From NCBI GenBank assembly GCA_038244815.1, contig JBBRTB010000001.1:40099-104098 (forward strand): a stretch of 64,000 nucleotides of DNA, in the 5' to 3' direction. A program made the position numbers and the translations under genes. Shown in pieces: positions 25,746 to 63,673 of the stretch (the stretch's first letter is position 1; each line of letters opens with the position of its first letter). The DNA comes from Thermoanaerobaculia bacterium. Lineage in GTDB: Bacteria > Acidobacteriota > Thermoanaerobaculia > Gp7-AA8. The notes beneath the pieces were generated by a model. The model was not told the DNA's origin, did no database searches, and was given only the letters and a program-made list of their open reading frames with translations.

Positions 25746-25760
25746 CGCTAGCTGTGCGTC

Positions 25761-25827
25761 CTGGGGCCTCGGGCCTCGGGCCTCGGATTACGGCTGAGTT
25801 GCACCCAGCACCCAGCACCGAGCACCC
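25761..25827. repeat. tandem heptamer repeats (GGCCTCG)x3 and (CACCCAG)x3 in convergent intergenic spacer
   Basis: Direct reading; first block is the reverse complement of the GAGGCCC heptamer found inside imuB/dnaE2. Confidence 0.5.
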
Positions 25828-43136: not shown

Positions 43137-43508
43137 ATGGACGGACTTCTTCGGTCGCTCATCAAAACAGTCCGGCGCCGTCTAAAAGCAGACGAGGAAG
43201 TCACGGTCGAAGCCGTGACTCGCGAGCTCGGTTACACCCGGCAGTACATCTCCGGACGATTCCATCGCACGACCGGACGGCTGCTGAGCCACTTCCTCAA
43301 GGAGAAGCGGCTGGAAAAAGCGGCGCGTCTTCTTCGTGCCGGGAACCTGCGCGTGTCTCAGATCGCGCGCCGGTGCGGATTCGACTCCGAGAACTACTTC
43401 CGCCAGCAGTTCCGCCAGCGCTACGGGATGTCACCGCGCCAGTTCCGGACGTCGACGGCCAGCCGCGGCCTTCACCCCCTGTCGAAGCCCGCCTCGGTCC
43501 AGATGTAG
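43137..43508 (+). CDS. AraC-family HTH domain protein (short, 123 aa)
   Basis: Two HTH_AraC helices (RELGYTRQYISGRFHRTTG...IARRCGFDSENYFRQQFRQRYGMSPRQFR); the long upstream ORF extension is antisense artefact. Confidence 0.7.
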   Translation: MDGLLRSLIKTVRRRLKADEEVTVEAVTRELGYTRQYISGRFHRTTGRLLSHFLKEKRLEKAARLLRAGNLRVSQIARRCGFDSENYFRQQFRQRYGMSPRQFRTSTASRGLHPLSKPASVQM

Positions 43509-44119
43509 CGGAGCGTGTTCGCGTCGAGCGTCCGCGACGCGATGGCATCGCGGAGGAACAGGAGCACGCGCCGAACCGACGAGTGCGGAACCTGCGTCTT
43601 CGCGAGATAGGCCCGATGCCCTTCGGCCGACTCGAACGTGATCGATCGAAGGACGCTGGTCAGGCGCACGACGCTTCCCTGGATCGTGATCTCCTGCCAC
43701 TCCCCTTTGTTCGCGTAGCGCATGTAATAGCGGCGGTGGAAGAGGCGCACCTCGCTGGCGTCGCCGATGCGGAGCGGCTTGCCGCTGTACATGGGAACCG
43801 ACCGGATACGGAATCCACGCGCTTTGGCCGCGGCCGCGGCCGTGGCGATCTCACCCGCCAGAGCCTCGTCGACGATCTCGCGCTCGCGAAGGAGGAGGAT
43901 CCAGTCGTTGCTGGCCGCATCGACGGCGCGGTTGAACTCCGCGCGGTGCGCGGCGATCCGGTCGCGCGGCGGAATCTCGAGGACGAGTTGCTCCAGGCGC
44001 GAGAAGTGCGGCGTCAGCGCCTGAAGCTCGTCGGCGTGAACGTGCCCGAAGGTGATCACCGAGAGTTGCAGCGTGGCCGGAGCGGTGGCGTCAGCGAGTC
44101 GGTCCCACGCCGCCGGCAC
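43472..44119 (-). CDS. hypothetical protein, degenerate GT2-like fold
   Basis: LSVITFGH and NDWILLLRERE resemble GT2 N-terminal strand and DxD region; weak. Confidence 0.4.
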   Translation of the reverse strand: MPAAWDRLADATAPATLQLSVITFGHVHADELQALTPHFSRLEQLVLEIPPRDRIAAHRAEFNRAVDAASNDWILLLREREIVDEALAGEIATAAAAAKARGFRIRSVPMYSGKPLRIGDASEVRLFHRRYYMRYANKGEWQEITIQGSVVRLTSVLRSITFESAEGHRAYLAKTQVPHSSVRRVLLFLRDAIASRTLDANTLRYIWTEAGFDRG

Positions 44120-44121
44120 GT

Positions 44122-44910
44122 TTACTCTCCGAGGTCTTCGCGGATGCGGGCGATGCGCACGGCCTTGCCGGTGGCCTCATCGATCTCCACGAGGACACCG
44201 GACAGCCGGACGTCCCGCTTGGCCACCTCGAGCTTCTTCGGTGTGTTCATGAGAAAGCGATGCAGCGCTTCGTCGGGACGGAATCCGATGACGGAATCGT
44301 ACGCGCCGGTCATGCCGACGTCGGTCTGATAGCCGGTGCCGTTCGGCAGGATCCTCTCGTCTGCGGTGGGCACGTGCGTGTGCGTGCCCAGGACGGCGGA
44401 GACACGGCCGTCGAGGTAGCGGCCCATGGCCTGCTTCTCGGAGCTCGCTTCGCCGTGAATGTCGACGATGATCACCTTCACCTGCTCGCCGATCTCCTTG
44501 AGCTCCTTGTCGGCACAGTAGAAAGGATTGTCGACCGGCGGCATGAAGACGTTGCCCATGAGCTGCAGCACGGCCACACTGACGCCGCCCGCGGTCTGCC
44601 GGATCACTTTGCCCGTCCCTGGATTTCCGGCCGGATAGTTGGCGGGCCGGATCACGTGCGGATAGTGGTCGTAGTTGTCGACGAAATCCTTCTTGTCCCA
44701 GATGTGATTGCCCGACGTGTAGGCGTTGATGGGAAGCTCGGAAAGCTCCTCCATGATCGCTTCGGTCACGCCGAAGCCGCCGGCCGCGTTCTCGACGTTC
44801 ACGATCGTGAAGTCGATTTTCTCGCGGTCGACGACGTGCTCGAGCTTCTGGTGCAGCGCTCGACGGCCGGGCTGGCCGACGACGTCACCGATGTAGAGGA
44901 CTCTGATCAT
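44122..44910 (-). CDS. ymdB: YmdB-family metallophosphoesterase (TIGR00282; 2',3'-cyclic-nucleotide phosphodiesterase)
   Basis: IGDVVG...GNH...GTHTHV metallophosphatase motifs; conserved rny-ymdB linkage. Confidence 0.85.
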   Translation of the reverse strand: MIRVLYIGDVVGQPGRRALHQKLEHVVDREKIDFTIVNVENAAGGFGVTEAIMEELSELPINAYTSGNHIWDKKDFVDNYDHYPHVIRPANYPAGNPGTGKVIRQTAGGVSVAVLQLMGNVFMPPVDNPFYCADKELKEIGEQVKVIIVDIHGEASSEKQAMGRYLDGRVSAVLGTHTHVPTADERILPNGTGYQTDVGMTGAYDSVIGFRPDEALHRFLMNTPKKLEVAKRDVRLSGVLVEIDEATGKAVRIARIREDLGE

Positions 44911-45026: not shown

Positions 45027-46592
45027 TCACTTCGCGTACTCCACGGTTCTCATCTCCCGGATCACGGTCACTTTGATCTGTCCCGGATACTGCAGCTCGG
45101 ACTCGATCTTGCGGGCCACGTCCTTGGAGAGCCAGATGGATTGTTCGTCGCTGATCTTCTCGGCGTTCACGATGATGCGCAACTCGCGCCCGGCCTGGAT
45201 GGCGAAGCTCTTCGAGACACCGTCCATGCTGTTGGCGATCGACTCCAGCCGCTCCAGGCGATGCACGTAATTCTCGAGAATCTCACGGCGTGCGCCCGGC
45301 CGGGCCGCCGACAGCGCGTCCGCGGCGTTGACCAGCACCGCCTCGACCGTCGTCGGATCGTAATCGCCGTGATGGCATTCCATGGCGTGGATGATCTCGC
45401 GCTTCTCGCCGTACTTGTCGAGCACCTGACGTCCCAGCTCGAGATGCGTGCCTTCCATCTCCCGGTCGATGGCCTTGCCGATGTCGTGCAGCAACCCGCC
45501 GCGCTTGGCGATCGTGTCGTTGACCCCGAGCTCGACCGCCATCAGCGCCGCCAGCTGCGCAACCTCGAGTGAGTGCACGAGCACGTTCTGCCCGTACGAG
45601 GTCCGGTACCGCAATCGTCCCAGCAGCTTGAGCACTTCGGGATTGATATCGGTGATGCCCAGTGAGAACGCCGCGGCCTCCCCTTCCTCGAAGAGCTTCT
45701 GGTCGAGCTCCTGCCGTACTTTCTCGACGAGCTCCTCGATGCGGGCCGGGTGAATGCGTCCGTCCTGCATCAGGCGCTCCAGCGAAATTCGCGCGATCTC
45801 GCGGCGGATCGGATCGAATCCCGACAGAATCACCGCTTCGGGCGTGTCGTCGACGATGAGATCGACTCCCGTGGCCAGCTCGAGCGCGCGGATGTTGCGC
45901 CCTTCACGGCCGATGATGCGGCCCTTCATGTCTTCCGACGGCAGGTCGACGACGGAGACGGTGTTCTCCGCGACGTAGTCCGAGGCCATGCGCTGGATGG
46001 CCATGCCCAGGATCTTGCGGGCCTTCTGCGTGCCCAGCTCGGTGGCCTCGGTCTCGATGCGCTTCACGATGTTGGCGGCGTCGAGCTTGGCTTCGTTCTC
46101 GATGCCGCGGATCAGTTCCTGGCGGGCCTGCTCGGCGGTGAGGCCGGCCACCTGCTCCAGTTTCCGGCGCTGCTCCTCGAACATCTGATCGAGCTGGCCC
46201 TCACGCCGTTCCACATCCTTCTCGCGGCTGGCGATGCCCTGATCGCGCTTCTCGACCTCGTCGATGCGGGCATCGATCTGCTGGGTCTTCCGGTCGATGT
46301 TCTCTTCTTTGGATTGGAGCCGCTGCTCCGACTTCTTCATCTCGTCGCGGCGTTGCTGAGCCTGCTTGTCGAACTCCGACCGCATCTGCAGCAGTTTTTC
46401 TTTCGCTTCGAGACTGGCTTCCTTGACGCGCGCCTCGGCCGACTTGCGGGCGTCTTCGACGATGCGCTCGGCCTCGCGGCGCGCTTCGACGAGCTGCGCC
46501 TCGACACGCTTGCGGTTGACCATCGCCCAGAGCAGGGCGAGCACGATGGCGCCTGCGACGCCAATCGCAATTCCTGTGATGATGGGTACCAA
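45027..46592 (-). CDS. rny: ribonuclease Y
   Basis: N-terminal TM, coiled-coil, KH domain, HD domain (HDIGK). Confidence 0.95.
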
Positions 46593-46629
46593 ACTCCACC
46601 TCCCTCGAGGGAGGCTCGCGCAGTAGAGG

Positions 46630-46850
46630 AAAAAAACTCGGAGATCCCCGCCTGAGCCGTGTGGAGATTCTCACTCGAACCTGTAAAAGAACAGGTGGGC
46701 GCCCTACTGGGACCGTTTTGGCTACCTTCTATACCCGGTGAAGGGCGAAGGCGTGCTCGCGATCCGCAGACCCGGACACCCGAAGCAAGAATTACGGTTC
46801 AAGCGTTAGATCGTTCATCACGCACTCTGCAGGGATTCTCCGAAAATTCT
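46630..46850 (-). ncRNA. ssrS: candidate 6S RNA (SsrS), co-transcribed downstream of zapA
   Basis: ~220-nt non-coding gap between zapA and rny; 5' CGGAGAAUCCC pairs with 3' GGGGAUCUCCG to close the molecule; ends in U7 run; zapA-ssrS synteny is widespread. Confidence 0.35.
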
Positions 46851-46865
46851 TTTACGTCTGATGAC

Positions 46866-47156
46866 TCAACTGATTACCTTGTTGAGCCGCTCCGATATTT
46901 CCTCCGTTTTCTCGATCCATATTCCCCTGGCGCCTTGGCGCTGGTTCCGGAACCGGGAAAACTCATCAGCGATATTGAGAGCTGCCAGGATCGCGATTTT
47001 CATCGGATCGACCGTCGCGACTTCCGCGGCCACCTCTCGCATCCTGGCATCGACAAACCGCGCAAGCTCCATTAAATAATTCGGGTCCCCTTCCCCGCGA
47101 ACGTGGTACGCCTGACCAAAGATCTCTACCTCGGTCGAATCGTGTTTTCCGGTCAT
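46866..47156 (-). CDS. zapA: cell division protein ZapA
   Basis: 96 aa; ZapA family N-terminal beta region and C-terminal coiled coil. Confidence 0.85.
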   Translation of the reverse strand: MTGKHDSTEVEIFGQAYHVRGEGDPNYLMELARFVDARMREVAAEVATVDPMKIAILAALNIADEFSRFRNQRQGARGIWIEKTEEISERLNKVIS

Positions 47157-47318
47157 CGGGAAAAGTTACCGCGCGCGGATTATACGGGATTTATCTTTCG
47201 ACGTCGGGCCGGTTCTCAGCCAGCCCTGTCTGGCGAGCCCGGGTAGTGCGGCGTCATGCAGATGGAACAGGGCCCTGACGGGTGCGGGGTGCCTCAGGAG
47301 TAAAGCGCAGCTCACGCT

Positions 47319-47642
47319 TCATCGCCGGTCGGAGGACTTCGCGATTCTCGTGATGCGCAGCGGTTTCGCATCCCTCACGGTCGTCTCTCCACGCGCGAGC
47401 TCTTCAAGGCCGCGAGCCACCGACTCCAGCGCATTGCGATTGCGGAAGAGCCACACCTCGGATGTGGGGATCGTCACTTGCGGTTCGAGAATGATGTTGC
47501 CTCGACCGTCGCGATAAACATCGAACGTCGCGTCACTTAGGTCTTTCAGCGCGGCGCCTGGAGACACGCGCTGGCGATTGTCGGGTCTAACGTCGCGAGC
47601 GACGAGCTCTCGGTCGTTCTGGTGTTTCATGGTCTGACCCAT
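47319..47642 (-). CDS. hypothetical protein, possible SpoVT/AbrB-like swapped-hairpin DNA-binding domain
   Basis: Weak pattern (RVSPGAALKDL...GNIILEP); no partner gene. Confidence 0.35.
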   Translation of the reverse strand: MGQTMKHQNDRELVARDVRPDNRQRVSPGAALKDLSDATFDVYRDGRGNIILEPQVTIPTSEVWLFRNRNALESVARGLEELARGETTVRDAKPLRITRIAKSSDRR

Positions 47643-47738: not shown

Positions 47739-48560
47739 ATGGCTGCACCGGCTCGACCACTCTCCTCACAGTTCCGACTTCTCGATCTCAGGCCGAGCCA
47801 GGCGAAACCTGTCCTCGTCCCGCCTCTTCAACCGGTAGAACGCGGGCAGCGCGAAGCGCTCAGAAATCTTCGGGCCTCGCTCGATCCGGCCATCGCGCGG
47901 CACCTCACGAGCGCCACCGAGCTGATTCGCGCACTCGACAAAACCCGGCGCGAAGACTTCCTCCCCACCACGGTCGACGCCATCGACACGCTCCTGGGCG
48001 GTGGGCTGCGCCGCGGGAAAGTCGTCGAGCTCGTGGCCCGCCGCGCCACGGGCCGCTTCTCGATTGTCCTCTCGGCGCTGGCCGCGGCCACCTCGATCGG
48101 TGAAGCGGCGGCGCTCATCGACGTCAGCGATCACTTCGACCCGCAGATCGCCGAAGAGGCCGGAGTCGATCTGCGCCGTCTGCTGTGGGTGCGTCCGAAG
48201 ACGATGAAGGACGCGGTGCTGGCGGCGGAGCTGATCACGGCCACCGGCTTCCAGCTCGTGGTCATCGATGCGGGGCTCCATCCCGTACGTGGACGGCGCG
48301 TTCCCGACGCCACCTGGGTCCGTCTCGCTCGCGCGGCCGAATCGCACGGCGCGGCCATGCTCATCTCGGCACCGTACCCGTTCACGGGAACCGCATCCGA
48401 AGCGCTCATCCGCGGTGAGAGAACGCGCGTGCAATGGCTGGGCAGCGGAAAGTCGCCGCGGCTCCTCGGCGCCATCACCACCGATTTCCGGCTGGAGAAA
48501 CATCGTCATCGAAAACCGGGCGCGCCGGCGACCTGCGACCTGAGGCCGGTGACGCCATGA
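47739..48560 (+). CDS. imuA: ImuA (RecA/SulA-like inactive ATPase) of the ImuA-ImuB-DnaE2 mutasome
   Basis: RecA-fold remnant (LDTLLGGGLRRGKVVELV), position directly upstream of imuB with start/stop overlap. Confidence 0.65.
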   Translation: MAAPARPLSSQFRLLDLRPSQAKPVLVPPLQPVERGQREALRNLRASLDPAIARHLTSATELIRALDKTRREDFLPTTVDAIDTLLGGGLRRGKVVELVARRATGRFSIVLSALAAATSIGEAAALIDVSDHFDPQIAEEAGVDLRRLLWVRPKTMKDAVLAAELITATGFQLVVIDAGLHPVRGRRVPDATWVRLARAAESHGAAMLISAPYPFTGTASEALIRGERTRVQWLGSGKSPRLLGAITTDFRLEKHRHRKPGAPATCDLRPVTP

Positions 48561-50125
48561 CGCGGATCGCCTGCTTCTACGTCCCGATGTTCCCGCTGGC
48601 GGCGCGGCTGCGCAGCGAGCCGGAGCTGCTGGAAGAAGCGCTGGCCATCGTCGAGGGGAACGGCAACAACGCGCACGTGGTCGCGGCGACACGGCGCGCG
48701 CGCACGAAAGGCATTCGCCCCGGCCACTCGCTCGCCCAGGCGCGATCGATTCTGCCGAAGCTCATCGCGCGCGGCCGCGACGCCGCATGCGAGCACACCG
48801 CGCAGGAAGCGCTGCTCGAAGTCGCGGAGACGTTCTCGCCGCGCATCGAAGACGCCGGCGACGGCGTGGTGTACCTCGATGTCACAGGGATGGAGCGACA
48901 TTACCAGGCCTCGGGCCTCGGGCCGCAGGCCTCGGTCGAAATCAGGGCGGGGGAAACCGAGGCCCGAGGCCCGAGGCCCGAGGCCTCTCCCGAGCTCCTG
49001 CTCGGCCGCGAGGCCATCCGCCGCTGTGACGCCATCGGATTGCCGGCGCGCGCCGGCATTGCCGCGAGCAAGCTGGCGGCGCGTGTGGCGGCGGAGCTGC
49101 CGAAGTCGCCGCGCGTCGTCGAGCCGGGTCAGGAAGCGGAGTTTCTCGCACCGCTGCCTCTGACGCGACTGGCGCCCGAGGTGAATGCGGCGATGACGCT
49201 GGACCGGTGGGGAATCACGTCGATCGGCGACCTGGCCCGTCTTCCCGAAAGCGAAATTGCCAGCCGTCTCGGCGAGTGCGGCCGCGATCTGCACTCCGCG
49301 GCGCGCGGCATCGATCCGACACCGCTCATTCCGCGCCCCTTGCCGCCGGAGTTCCGCGAAGGGCTCGACCTGGAGTGGCCGCTCGTGGCGCTCGAGCCGT
49401 TTCTCTTCATCGCCAGCGCCGCGCTCGACCGGCTGACCAAACGGATGGAAGTGCAGGGCTTCGCCTGCACGCGGCTCGAGCTGACGATGCAGCTCGAACC
49501 GGATGGGTTTCATTCGCGCGCCATCGAGCTTCCGGCGCCGACGCGCGATGTGAAGACGATGCTGACGCTGCTGCGCCTCGACCTCGAGAAAACACCGCCC
49601 GGCGCGCCGGTCACCGGATTCGTGATCGTCGCCCATCCCGACCGCCCGCGGCGCGCGCAGTTGTCGCTGTTCGGTCCCGCCGCACTCTCGCCGGAGAAAC
49701 TGGCCACGACGATCGCCCGCCTCGTCTCACTCCTCGGCGACGGCCGCATCGGCATGGCCACGACGGTCGACGGTCATCTGCCGGAGCGTTACTCGATCGC
49801 CGACTACGCCCCTCCTGCCCCGCCCGACGCGCGGAAGAAACCGCCGCGCAGCCGGGGACTGCTGGCCGTGCGCGTGTTCCGCCCGCCCATCCCCGTCGAG
49901 GTCATCACGCGTGTCGTCGGCGGCGAAATGCAGATCGAGAGGATCGAAGGAGACGGCGACGTCTCCGGCCCCGTGCGCATCTCCTCCGGCCCCTGGCGCA
50001 TCGAAGACGGCTGGTGGAAAGACGCCCCCGCCGCGCGCGAGTACTGGGACGTGGAGGTAGGAGCGAGCGTGTATCGGGTGTTCCAGACTTCCGAGGGGTG
50101 GAGGGTGGATGCGAGGTACGACTGA
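48558..50125 (+). CDS. imuB: ImuB (Y-family DNA polymerase-like, catalytically inactive) with in-frame repeat insertion
   Basis: UmuC/DinB-like palm (ACFYVPMFPLAA...YLDVTG) lacking acidic triad; C-terminal ImuB-specific region. Confidence 0.85.
48906..48987. repeat. palindromic heptamer-repeat element inside imuB: (GGCCTCG)n left arm plus GAAACC(GAGGCCC)3GAGGCCT right arm
   Basis: Read directly; encodes in-frame ...GLGPQASVEIRAGETEARGPRPEA... Confidence 0.55.
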
Positions 50126-50600: not shown

Positions 50601-53600
50601 ATGTCCCACGGACGAAAACCAACCAGAAACCTCGACGCGTTAAACATCACGTACTCGCCTCCCGGCGAGACGAAGGAGAAGGTCAAAGCCCGCGCCACGA
50701 GCGTGCCGCTCTCCTCCCAGTACGACCACATCCCGTTCGTCCACGAGAAATTCGGCGGGACGAAGCCGGATGAAGCGCCGCCGGAGCCGGCGCCGCCGAA
50801 ACGGAGCACGACGAGAACGAAAACGCGTCCGTACGCGGAGCTGCATGCCGCCAGCGCGTTCTCGTTTCTCGATGGCGCGTCGCTGCCTGAAGATCTCATG
50901 TACCAGGCAGCGGAACACGACCTGCCGGCCATGGCGCTCGTCGACACGAACGGCGTCTACGGCGCACCGCGCTTCTACGGCGCGGCGAAGAAGACCGGAG
51001 TCCGAGCCCTCGTCGGCAGTGAGCTCGTCCTCGAAACCGAGGCCCGAGGCCCGAGGCCCGAGGCCTGCCTCACCCTCCTCGTCGAGAACCGCACCGGCTA
51101 CAGGAACCTCTGCAAGCTCGTGACGGCGGGGGCCGCCGGACGAGAGAAGGGCAAAGCGCGATTCACCTGGGATCTCGTCGAACAGTACGCGGAAGGGCTG
51201 CACTGCCTCACGCGCGCGGACGATGAAACCGCCGGCCGGATCGCCGGTATCTTTCCGAACCGGACGCACGTCGAGCTGCAGCGTCACTTCCGCCGCGACG
51301 AAGAGCGCCACAACATCCGCCTCATCGATCTGGCGCGCCGCCTGAGACTCCCGCTCGTGGCCACCAACGGCGTGCGTTACGCACGGCCGCAGGACAAGGA
51401 GCTGCACGACGTCCTCACCTGCATCCGCGAGAAGACTCACGTCGACAAGGCCGGGCGTCTGCTCGGCGTCAACCGCGAGCGTTCCATCAAGTCAGCGGCG
51501 GAGATGAGCCGTCTCTTCGCCGATCTGCCCGAAGCGCTCGACGGCGCCTGGTCGCTCGCGAACACGCTCGACTTCACGCTCGCCGACCTCGGCTACCAGT
51601 TTCCCGACTACCCGCTTCCCGCCGGCGAGACGAACAACTCCTTCCTGCGCAAGATCGCCTGGAACTCGGCCAAAGCGCGCTTCCGGCCGCTGACCGCCAA
51701 AGCGCAGATGCAGGTCGAGAAAGAGCTGAACATGATCGAGAAGCTCGATCTGGCCGGCTACTTCCTCATCGTCTGGGACATCGTGCAGTTCTGCGGCCGC
51801 GAGAAAATCCTCGTGCAGGGCCGCGGATCCGCCGCGAACAGCGCCGTCTGTTACGCGCTCGGCATCACCGCGGTCGATCCGGTGAAGATGGAGCTGCTGT
51901 TCGAGCGTTTCCTCTCCGAGGAGCGCGGCGAATGGCCGGACATCGATCTCGATCTGCCTTCGGGCGATCAGCGCGAGAGAGTCATCCAGCACGTCTACCA
52001 GACCTACGGCGTGCACGGTGCGGCCATGACCGCGAACGTGATCACGTACCGCGACCGCTCCGCCGCGCGCGAAGTCGGCAAAGCGCTCGGCTACTCGCTC
52101 GAGCAGGCCGACAAGCTCTCGAAATGCGTCTCCACCTGGAACTTCGGCGAGATCAGGGAGGCCATCGAGAATCTCGCCGGCGAGCTGGAGAAAACGGGAT
52201 TCGATCCCGCCGACCTGCGCGTGCAGCACTTCATGCGCCTCTACCTGCAGATCCAGAATCTGCCGCGCCACCTCGGCCAGCATTCGGGCGGGATGGTGAT
52301 GGCCAAAGGACGCCTCGACGAAGTCGTGCCACTCGAGCCGGCCTCGATGCCCGGCCGCGTGGTCATCCAATGGGATAAGGAGGACTGCGCCGATCTCGGC
52401 CTCATCAAAGTGGATCTCCTGGGACTGGGGATGCTGGCGGCGATCGAAGAAGCGCTGCCGACGATCCGCACCAACGAAGGCATCGATGTCGACCTCGCTC
52501 ACCTGCCGGAAAACGATCCCGCCGTCTACAAGATGCTCAACGAGGCCGACACCGTCGGCATGTTCCAGGTCGAGAGCCGCGCGCAGATGGCGTCGCTGCC
52601 GCGCAACGCGCCGAAGAAGTTCTACGACATCGTGGTGCAGGTCGCCATCATCCGTCCCGGACCGATCGTCGGCGGCATGATCCGGCCGTTCTTCGATCGC
52701 CGCCAGGGCAAGGCGCCGGTCGAATATCCGCATCCCTGCCTCGAGCCGATCCTCAAGCGCACGCTCGGTGTGCCGCTCTTTCAGGAGCAACTGCTGCGCA
52801 TGGCTATGGTGGCGGCGAACTTCACCGGCGGCGAGGCCGAGGAACTGCGCCGGGCCATGGGGTTCAAGCGTTCGATGGAGCGCATGCACGACATCGAGAA
52901 GCGGCTGCGCGAAGGCATGACCAGCAACGGCATCGATCTTCCCGCCCAGGAGCAGATCGTGAAGTCGATCACCGCGTTCGCGCTCTACGGCTTCCCGGAA
53001 TCGCACGCGGCGAGCTTCGCGCTCATCGCCTACGCCAGCGCGTATCTGAAAGCGCACCACTCCGCGGCGTTCTACGTCTCGCTGCTGAACGCGTGGCCGA
53101 TGGGTTTCTACCATCCGGCCACGCTCGTCAAGGACGCGCAGCGGCACAAGACCGGCGTGCTGCCGATCGACGTGAATCACTCCGGCTGGATGTGCCGCTG
53201 GGAAAACAACGGCGTGCGCATGGGGATGCGGTTCATCAAGGGACTGCGCGAAGCGACCGCGAAGAAGATCGAGGCCAATCAGCCGTTCACGTCGACGGAG
53301 GATCTCGCCTGGCGCTGCCGGCTGCGTGACGACCAGCTCACCAAGCTCGCCCACGCCGGCGCGCTCGGCTCACTCGGATTGACGAGACGCAACGCGCTCT
53401 GGCAGGCCGCCAAAGCGGCGAAACCGGCCGGAGAGCTGTTCGAAGGAAACCGAGGCCCCAGGCCCGAGGCCCGAGGCCTGCTTCCGGAGATGTCCGCGAT
53501 CGAGAACACGATGGCCGACTACCACACCATGGAGCTGACGACCGGTCCGCATCTCATCGAGCATTTCCGTTCGCAGCTCGAGAGAGACAACATCCTGTCG

Positions 53601-63596: not shown

Positions 63597-63673
<77 letters not shown>

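Follow-up and report, generated by a model that had tools for sequence, protein, structure and literature searches.

The 6S RNA is a small RNA that regulates RNA polymerase. Its central bubble mimics an open promoter, and the RNA sits in the active site of the RNA polymerase holoenzyme that carries the housekeeping sigma factor. In this way it restrains transcription in slow growth, and its release follows when the polymerase, using the 5' strand of the bubble as template, makes a short product RNA (pRNA). A different kind of control acts on translation, through hairpins that sequester the Shine-Dalgarno (SD) sequence; the ROSE and fourU RNA thermometers are examples.

In beta- and gamma-proteobacteria the 6S gene, ssrS, lies immediately after zapA, and in Escherichia coli a dicistronic ssrS-ygfA transcript is processed to 6S RNA (PMC7641849). 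In Bacillus subtilis, RNase Y cleaves 6S-1 RNA in the 5' central bubble in vitro; that study did not demonstrate a specific role of the enzyme in 6S processing in vivo (PMC10578484). B. subtilis RNase Y also controls its own synthesis through the leader and the early ORF of its gene, rny: the enzyme cleaves in the 5' UTR and in the first ~100 nt of the ORF, and RNase J1 follows (PMC10303841).

The zapA-rny locus

The locus described here lies in a 64-kb stretch of DNA (the window) from an uncultured Thermoanaerobaculia (Acidobacteriota) MAG. RNase Y relatives likewise place the window in Thermoanaerobaculia, the closest of them (94% identity) coming from another MAG of this class. The protein-coding genes of the conserved block are all on the minus strand:

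46866-47156 (-): zapA, 96 aa (Pfam ZapA PF05164, E = 6.4e-17)
45027-46592 (-): rny, encoding RNase Y of 521 aa, with a UUG start at 46590-46592 (Pfam RNase_Y_N, KH and HD domains)
44122-44910 (-): ymdB, encoding a YmdB-family metallophosphoesterase, the last gene of the block (Pfam YmdB PF13277, E = 6.6e-103)

The spacer from the zapA stop codon (46866-46868) to the rny start codon measures 273 nt (46593-46865). No ORF in the ORF listing is confined to it. Two long ones, 46201-46674 (-) and 46659-47075 (+), overlap it, and both are off-frame or antisense readings over rny and zapA in GC-rich DNA. A preliminary description of this DNA had given a 270-nt spacer without an ORF. The zapA gene lies 5' of rny in nearly all Acidobacteriota loci, ymdB lies 3' of rny in most loci (nearly all in Acidobacteriota), and the order zapA-6S-rny-ymdB is conserved. 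The ORFs that border the block, one of 107 aa upstream (47319-47642 (-)) and one of 215 aa downstream (43472-44119 (-)), have no Pfam match.

The arrangement resembles that of E. coli ssrS (zapA-ssrS-ygfA; RF00013) in several respects. A closing stem, a central bubble and an apical stem are common to both RNAs, zapA directly precedes the RNA in the same orientation, and close downstream comes a protein gene, with no recognisable terminator in most relatives. The two loci differ in the downstream gene, which is ygfA (5-formyltetrahydrofolate cyclo-ligase) or an EVE-domain gene there and rny-ymdB here, and in the host, Proteobacteria there and Acidobacteriota here; in addition, the copy in the window has a lineage-specific U7 tail. 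The zapA-adjacent position, which the preliminary description had called typical of 6S RNA, agrees with the report on beta- and gamma-proteobacteria (PMC7641849). B. subtilis, with its 6S-1 and 6S-2 RNAs, is comparable in being an organism that has 6S RNA and uses RNase Y, but the Firmicutes rny loci that we examined have no 6S RNA upstream.

A 6S RNA gene in the spacer

Judged by sequence and predicted structure, the spacer encodes an ordinary 6S RNA (ssrS) of a Thermoanaerobaculia (Acidobacteriota) bacterium, at about 46639-46842 (-). The assignment is carried by a match to the Rfam 6S/SsrS family RF00013 at 46641-46838 (-), with 76.2 bits where the gathering score is 46.4 (E = 3e-13). The match covers model positions 1-187 of 187, untruncated, and lies 30 bits over the curated threshold; a permissive local Rfam search gave the same 6S result. 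The 6S sequence has a predicted folding energy of -96.1 kcal/mol (z = -5.74), which none of 200 shuffles equals. All the computable characters of RF00013 were found, namely the score, a rod of ~180-200 nt with a bubble (here 198-204 nt) and compensatory changes. Neither RF00013 nor our own covariance model R1 (see below) detects a second 6S copy in the 64-kb window. The parts of the RNA are as follows:

about 46639-46842 (-): 6S RNA (ssrS), comprising the Rfam match at 46641-46838 and the outer closing-stem pairs
46834-46816 with 46663-46646 (-): closing stem, 16 bp (consensus structure mapped to the window)
46815-46805 with 46672-46664 (-): internal loop (consensus structure)
46804-46796 with 46681-46673 (-): internal stem, 9 bp (consensus structure)
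46782-46795 (-): 5' strand of the central bubble, 14 nt, GUAAUUCUUGCUUC (consensus structure, aligned to the Rfam bubble), with the predicted start of the pRNA template
46682-46696 (-): 3' strand of the central bubble, 15 nt, ACCUGUUCUUUUACA (Rfam alignment and consensus structure), with a possible small CCUG/CAGG hairpin
46781-46747 with 46729-46697 (-): apical stem (consensus structure)
46746-46730 (-): apical loop (consensus structure)

The 6S candidate that the preliminary description proposed on the minus strand is borne out by the full-length RF00013 match, 76.2 bits against 46.4 in the very scan it had suggested, and by covariation in 48 related loci. Its two closing-stem segments, 46832-46842 and 46639-46649, are located as it had them, and the central bubble, for which it had suggested a fold prediction, is left unpaired over 14 and 15 nt of its strands in the consensus structure. 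In the outermost part of the closing stem, CGGAGAAUCCC (46842-46832) stands opposite GGGGAUCUCCG (46649-46639); the exception among the 11 positions is an A.A mismatch, and one of the 10 pairs is G.U. Since the outward extension of this stem, UUUCGGAG/CUCCGAAA, is conserved in relatives, the gene would extend beyond the Rfam match to about 46639-46842. In the region of the 3' bubble strand, CCCACCUG and CAGGUUC are nearly invariant among relatives. From its membership in the family, the window 6S RNA is expected to bind the holoenzyme and to template pRNA; by analogy with E. coli, copying of pRNA would probably begin near 46795.

Of 40 loci scanned with Rfam, 26 (17 in a first sample of 20 and 9 in a second) have a full-length 6S RNA immediately 5' of rny and in the same orientation, and all the Rfam 6S matches among these loci were in Acidobacteriota. 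A first alignment of 18 diverse 6S copies (MAFFT and RNAalifold) misaligned the apical region and recovered only 28 pairs, and it was replaced by a closer subset and a covariance-model alignment. The RNAalifold consensus of 11 closer copies has the textbook 6S architecture. Model R1, a covariance model built from these 11 copies and their consensus structure, scores the window 6S RNA at 194 bits and, in each of 48 related Acidobacteriota loci, finds a single copy, which precedes rny directly and is oriented the same way. In the alignment of 49 sequences, which was fitted to the model structure and so favours pairing, 94% of cells pair against at most 48% in slid controls, a margin that is still large. 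Of the 49 pairs in this alignment 25 are changed on both sides, and none of 500 shuffles reaches the observed values. On this comparison, the 6S structure is kept in related genomes through compensatory base changes.

A putative zapA-ssrS-rny-ymdB transcription unit

The distance from the zapA stop codon to the 6S RNA is ~20 nt and that from the 6S RNA to rny is 48 nt. Three features upstream of the 6S RNA bear on how it might be transcribed and released:

47179-47184 (-): TATAAT -10 box, putative operon promoter, 22 nt upstream of the zapA ATG (read from the sequence)
46863-46888 (-): predicted hairpin at the zapA 3' end, formed by GGCUCAAC, a 10-nt loop and GUUGAGUC, with the UGA stop codon (46866-46868) in its 3' arm
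46843-46862 (-): A/U-rich single-stranded linker CAUCAGACGUAAAAGAAUUU between the zapA hairpin and the 6S RNA, a putative 5' processing site

All 29 relatives inspected have a TATAAT-like hexamer 28-42 nt ahead of the zapA ATG, in most cases TGCTATAAT (extended -10); the box in the window carries CCG where the relatives have TGC. There is no conserved -35 before zapA among these 29 relatives, and it is because of the poor -35 that the consensus promoter scan left the box unreported. From its conservation we infer that the box is the promoter of the operon. The same scan calls no minus-strand promoter or terminator in 46300-47400. By eye, no hexamers with plausible spacing are seen in the 20-nt gap between zapA and the 6S RNA or in the 3' part of the 6S RNA, and the linker in the gap, which varies in sequence among relatives, contains no conserved -10 at a fixed distance. 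The negative scan of 46300-47400 thus gives nothing in favour of a separate promoter for the 6S RNA or of a canonical terminator; the 6S RNA and rny might possibly have a non-consensus internal promoter.

The zapA 3' hairpin is predicted in most relatives, with clade-specific stems. In an alignment of 26 relatives (A6), 89% of cells pair as compared with at most 41% in slid controls, and 3 of the 8 pairs are changed on both sides. The hairpin probably serves in 3'-end protection or as a processing determinant. Each side of the 6S RNA has a short A/U-rich linker and then a hairpin. This is the layout expected for excision from a precursor. From it, the conserved promoter, the short distances and the negative scan we infer a single zapA-ssrS-rny-ymdB transcript from which the 6S RNA would be cut out. 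The unit would be driven by the conserved extended -10 promoter (TATAAT 47184-47179), and the 6S RNA would be excised at the A/U-rich single-stranded linkers that flank both of its ends. After excision, the zapA mRNA would end in the hairpin at 46888-46863 and the rny mRNA would begin shortly before a second hairpin, at 46614-46599.

The region between the promoter and zapA has a peculiarity of its own. A GGTAAC(T)TTTTCC block abuts the zapA ATG (47157-47190 (-) in the window, ~29 loci) and is almost invariant in the closer relatives, and neither the window nor the equivalent regions of these ~29 loci have an ordinary SD at normal spacing. This suggests a very short zapA leader with an unusual translation-initiation or regulatory signal.

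The hairpin of the rny leader

The second hairpin includes the ribosome-binding site of rny:

46599-46614 (-): anti-SD/SD hairpin, with CCUCCC at 46614-46609, a UCGA loop at 46608-46605 and GGGAGG at 46604-46599 (sequence and predicted fold)

The palindrome CCTCCCTCGAGGGAGG at 46614-46599 (-) has the SD, GGAGG (46603-46599), in its 3' arm, 6 nt before the UUG codon. As RNA it forms 6 bp (CCUCCC/GGGAGG) with a UCGA tetraloop (-9.8 kcal/mol), a loopless 8-bp helix being impossible. The minimum-energy fold (-14.1 kcal/mol) has a 5-bp inner stem with an outer helix, CUCUAC (46628-46623)/GUGGAG (46599-46594), stacked on it, and the SD is paired; for the SD region a pairing probability of 0.76 is predicted. 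The palindrome of the preliminary description is therefore real and does hold the SD in its 3' arm, but it had been placed 2 nt off (46597-46612 instead of 46599-46614) and taken for 8 bp rather than 6 bp and a tetraloop. Since the hairpin also occurs in a sister clade that has no 6S RNA in the spacer, we regard it as part of the rny leader rather than of the 6S module.

Of 72 Acidobacteriota rny leaders about 70 have a complement of the SD upstream of it, whether or not a 6S RNA is present. An equivalent SD hairpin is predicted in ~47 of the 49 6S-linked loci, in all 20 sister-clade loci and in the outgroup loci L074 and L077; among Firmicutes and Omnitrophota, most loci have a weak one or none. 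The stem sequence is clade-specific and comes in at least five versions, in which the anti-SD changes along with the SD:

anti-SD CCUCCC with SD GGGAGG
anti-SD CUCCUU with SD AAGGGG
anti-SD CCCUCGA with SD UCGAGGG
anti-SD CCCCU with SD AGGGG
anti-SD CCCCC with SD GGGGG
anti-SD UCUCCU with SD AGGAGG

In an alignment of 40 sequences (A4) the hairpin is 88.9% paired against 50-69% in slid controls, which remain this high because the pyrimidine-rich and purine-rich arms pair in several registers. There is one clear compensatory swap (U-A to C-G), and it follows clade boundaries, which amounts to few independent events. Taking these observations together, with statistical support that is moderate, we consider it likely that the rny SD hairpin is a conserved functional element. 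The start codons are also worth pointing out: rny begins with UUG or GUG in 46 of the 49 6S-linked loci as compared with AUG in 19 of the 20 sister-clade loci, a comparison of two clades only. The non-AUG starts would fit an extra damping of translation downstream of an abundant RNA, as far as two clades can tell.

As to what the hairpin does, translational damping has roughly an even chance of being its role, the main alternative being protection of the 5' end. If damping is the role, the pairing of GGAGG with the upstream CCUCC, together with the UUG start, would limit RNase Y translation from read-through of the abundant RNA. With this step added, the joint account, consisting of ssrS at 46639-46842 (-), its excision from a zapA-ssrS-rny-ymdB unit and an SD hairpin that would limit RNase Y translation, is one in which we have high confidence.

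In the main alternative, the CCUCCC/GGGAGG hairpin is no translation brake and mainly protects the 5' end of the rny mRNA from a 5'-to-3' exonuclease. The hairpin begins only ~25 nt past the 3' end of the 6S RNA, so that after removal of the 6S RNA a stem near the new 5' end and a strong ribosome-binding site would shield the rny mRNA. With the zapA 3' hairpin across the 6S RNA, excision would leave each of the two flanking mRNAs with a terminal stem. A possible parallel is B. subtilis, where digestion of the rny leader by RNase J1 is blocked near -15, possibly by initiating ribosomes (PMC10303841). However, the stem always takes in the SD itself and not any convenient upstream sequence, and it is retained in the sister clade, whose leader is a different, longer structured RNA. 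We therefore see protection as a somewhat unlikely main role, and return to damping as the preferred one.

Damping would have partial counterparts elsewhere. In B. subtilis, too, it is the 5' part of the rny mRNA through which the synthesis of RNase Y appears to be controlled, and the mechanism proposed there turns on ribosome occupancy of the initiation site (PMC10303841). The abstract of that study describes no SD-sequestering hairpin, and the Firmicutes loci that we examined mostly have no stable equivalent. The ROSE and fourU thermometers are similar in that a local stem-loop directly before the start codon has the ribosome-binding site as its 3' arm. They differ in having mismatches that allow melting, in place of which the rny leader has a perfect GC-rich 6-bp helix; the rny hairpin has no Rfam matches to thermometer families. 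A function as an RNA thermometer was rejected on account of this perfect GC-rich helix, and a function as an RNase III site because the stem is too short.

The hairpin might also simply be functionless, a C-rich stretch and a G-rich SD pairing by chance in a GC-rich genome. Within the window there is a good deal to say for this. The pattern CCTCC-N2-8-GGAGG occurs once against 0.81 expected, the local fold at the rny start has z = -0.6 (the median over relatives is -1.36), and a paired SD is predicted for 12 of the 28 other SD-bearing genes of the window (47 genes, with crude start-codon calls). The 50-69% pairing in the slid controls of the leader alignment points in the same direction. The idea that the palindrome is remarkable by itself was accordingly dropped, since the pattern count, the shuffle z-score and the gene comparison are all at background. 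With the window statistics at chance, the case for the hairpin depends entirely on its recurrence among relatives. That recurrence is difficult to reconcile with chance pairing: the SD complement is present in about 70 of the 72 leaders although the surrounding leader is unalignable between clades, and the anti-SD differs in step with the SD (CCUCC/GGAGG, CCCCC/GGGGG, CCCUCGA/UCGAGGG). A functionless hairpin is thus improbable in our estimation. The masking of the rny ribosome-binding site suggested in the preliminary description is plausible and supported by conservation across relatives, but in this genome alone the hairpin is no better than chance.

The U7 tract and termination

Directly after the closing stem of the 6S RNA comes a run of uridines:

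46630-46636 (-): U7 tract directly 3' of the 6S closing stem (sequence), a possible leaky terminator in this genome only

The preliminary description counted this tract among the typical parts of a 6S RNA. It is indeed present at 46636-46630, but a run of at least five U within 18 nt of the 6S end is found in only 8 of the 49 loci, including the closest relatives of the window, and in 33 of the 49 the U runs within this distance do not exceed three. Going by this distribution, the U7 tract is local to the window and to a minority of its relatives, and stands outside the conserved design. It may stop part of transcription in this genome.

A stronger version of this is that the closing stem and the U7 tract make an efficient intrinsic terminator, so that the 6S RNA is a separate transcription unit and rny has its own promoter. 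The GC-rich closing stem reaches right to AGUUUUUUU, and, as read from the sequence, the A-rich AAAAGAA upstream (46853-46847) could pair with the U tract; A-tracts do pair with the U tract in some terminators. However, the loop of such a hairpin would be the entire 6S RNA. An intrinsic terminator combines a compact GC-rich hairpin with a conserved U tract, and the only stem before U7 is the long-range 6S closing stem, which together with U7 is not called by the terminator scan. Moreover, the U tract is absent in 41 of the 49 loci, which keep the same gene order and spacing, and the 48-nt gap is too small for a promoter outside the 6S RNA, none being detected there. An efficient terminator at this position is accordingly quite improbable, and we retain the reading of one zapA-ssrS-rny-ymdB transcript, probably with the 6S RNA cut out.

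A different RNA in the sister clade

The sister clade consists of Thermoanaerobaculia loci L029-L048 and L071, whose RNase Y is 61-64% identical and whose zapA-rny spacer has 160-190 nt. Here another conserved RNA stands where the 6S RNA would be (e.g. L039:2751-2895). It starts right after the zapA stop codon with AGGCGAGGCGUCGGC..., and its predicted fold consists of a closing helix, a CCCCGAG hairpin, a helix of ACACGA with UCGUGU, and two arms, CGAGUGG/CCCUCG and CGGAAG/CUUCCG. In the alignment 30 columns are invariant and the mean column identity is 61%; the z-score of the fold is only -1.82, and RNAalifold on a MAFFT alignment results in a poor consensus. The sister-clade RNA has no Rfam match at E up to 1. 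We rejected the possibility that it is a divergent 6S RNA, as it matches neither Rfam nor R1 and has a branched fold with no large bubble. Its occurrence in the zapA-rny slot means that structured RNAs other than 6S can occupy this slot.

It might be argued on this ground, and because the RNA of the window precedes rny by 48 nt in the same orientation and shows neither a promoter nor a terminator that could be recognised as its own, that it too is a structured cis-acting rny leader or zapA 3' UTR that resembles a trans-acting 6S RNA, but this is very improbable in view of the full-length match 30 bits beyond the curated threshold, the conservation with covariation of the large central bubble and flanking helices that form the functional core of 6S RNA, and the fact that operon embedding is normal for 6S, E. 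coli ssrS-ygfA being a processed dicistronic transcript (PMC7641849).

Implications

The zapA-6S order was already known and the RNA is a further member of RF00013, so that knowledge of 6S RNA itself is unchanged by this locus. What the 6S call provides is the correct non-coding RNA annotation for an unannotated Thermoanaerobaculia genome. It also extends the zapA-ssrS linkage, known from beta- and gamma-proteobacteria, to Acidobacteriota, with a different downstream partner; in the searchable literature we found no report of rny-ymdB as the downstream partner of 6S RNA in this phylum. The tight conserved coupling of the 6S RNA with rny-ymdB suggests joint expression of transcription control and mRNA-decay control in the phylum. 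The conserved SD hairpin, for its part, is a simple testable candidate for setting the dosage of RNase Y outside Firmicutes.

One may go further and imagine an Acidobacteriota module in which the 6S RNA and RNase Y come from one precursor, with excision of the RNase Y type, uncoupling by the SD hairpin and the non-AUG start, and possible feedback by the 6S RNA. In such a module a global transcription brake (6S RNA) and the main mRNA-decay endonuclease (RNase Y) would share one precursor. RNase Y or a similar A/U-specific endonuclease would cut the hairpin-flanked linkers, in which case RNase Y would set the fate of its own mRNA, and the SD hairpin and non-AUG start would uncouple RNase Y output from 6S output. 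In E. coli, extended -10 promoters without a recognisable -35 have been reported as the class most sensitive to 6S RNA. The promoter upstream of zapA is putatively of this kind and, if sensitive to 6S RNA, would close a feedback loop. The sister clade would then have swapped the 6S RNA in the slot for an undescribed structured RNA. As a whole we regard this module as speculative and rather unlikely.

Other features of the window

An inverted repeat with 31-nt arms (94% complementary) and a 19-nt spacer, composed of GGCCTCG heptamers, is located at 48906-48986 (+) within ORF 48434-50125. It lies in frame in an ImuB-like gene (Pfam IMS family), beside a RecA-fold (ImuA-like) gene at 47739-48560, and has weak, sub-threshold matches to microRNA precursor models on both strands. 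A comparable long hairpin with microRNA-type matches is present in another locus (L037:5493-5592). The GGCCTCG heptamer arrays are dispersed in the window (25758-25789, 48907-48985, 51034-51065 and 53454-53478), and an 18-mer of the array has 13 matches with up to 3 mismatches against 0.48 expected. By their sequence, the arrays look like a REP-like repeat family. Finally, there is a tRNA gene at 63600-63673 (-) (Rfam tRNA, 72.1 bits), whose anticodon loop, CUCCGGA, gives a putative CGG anticodon for proline.
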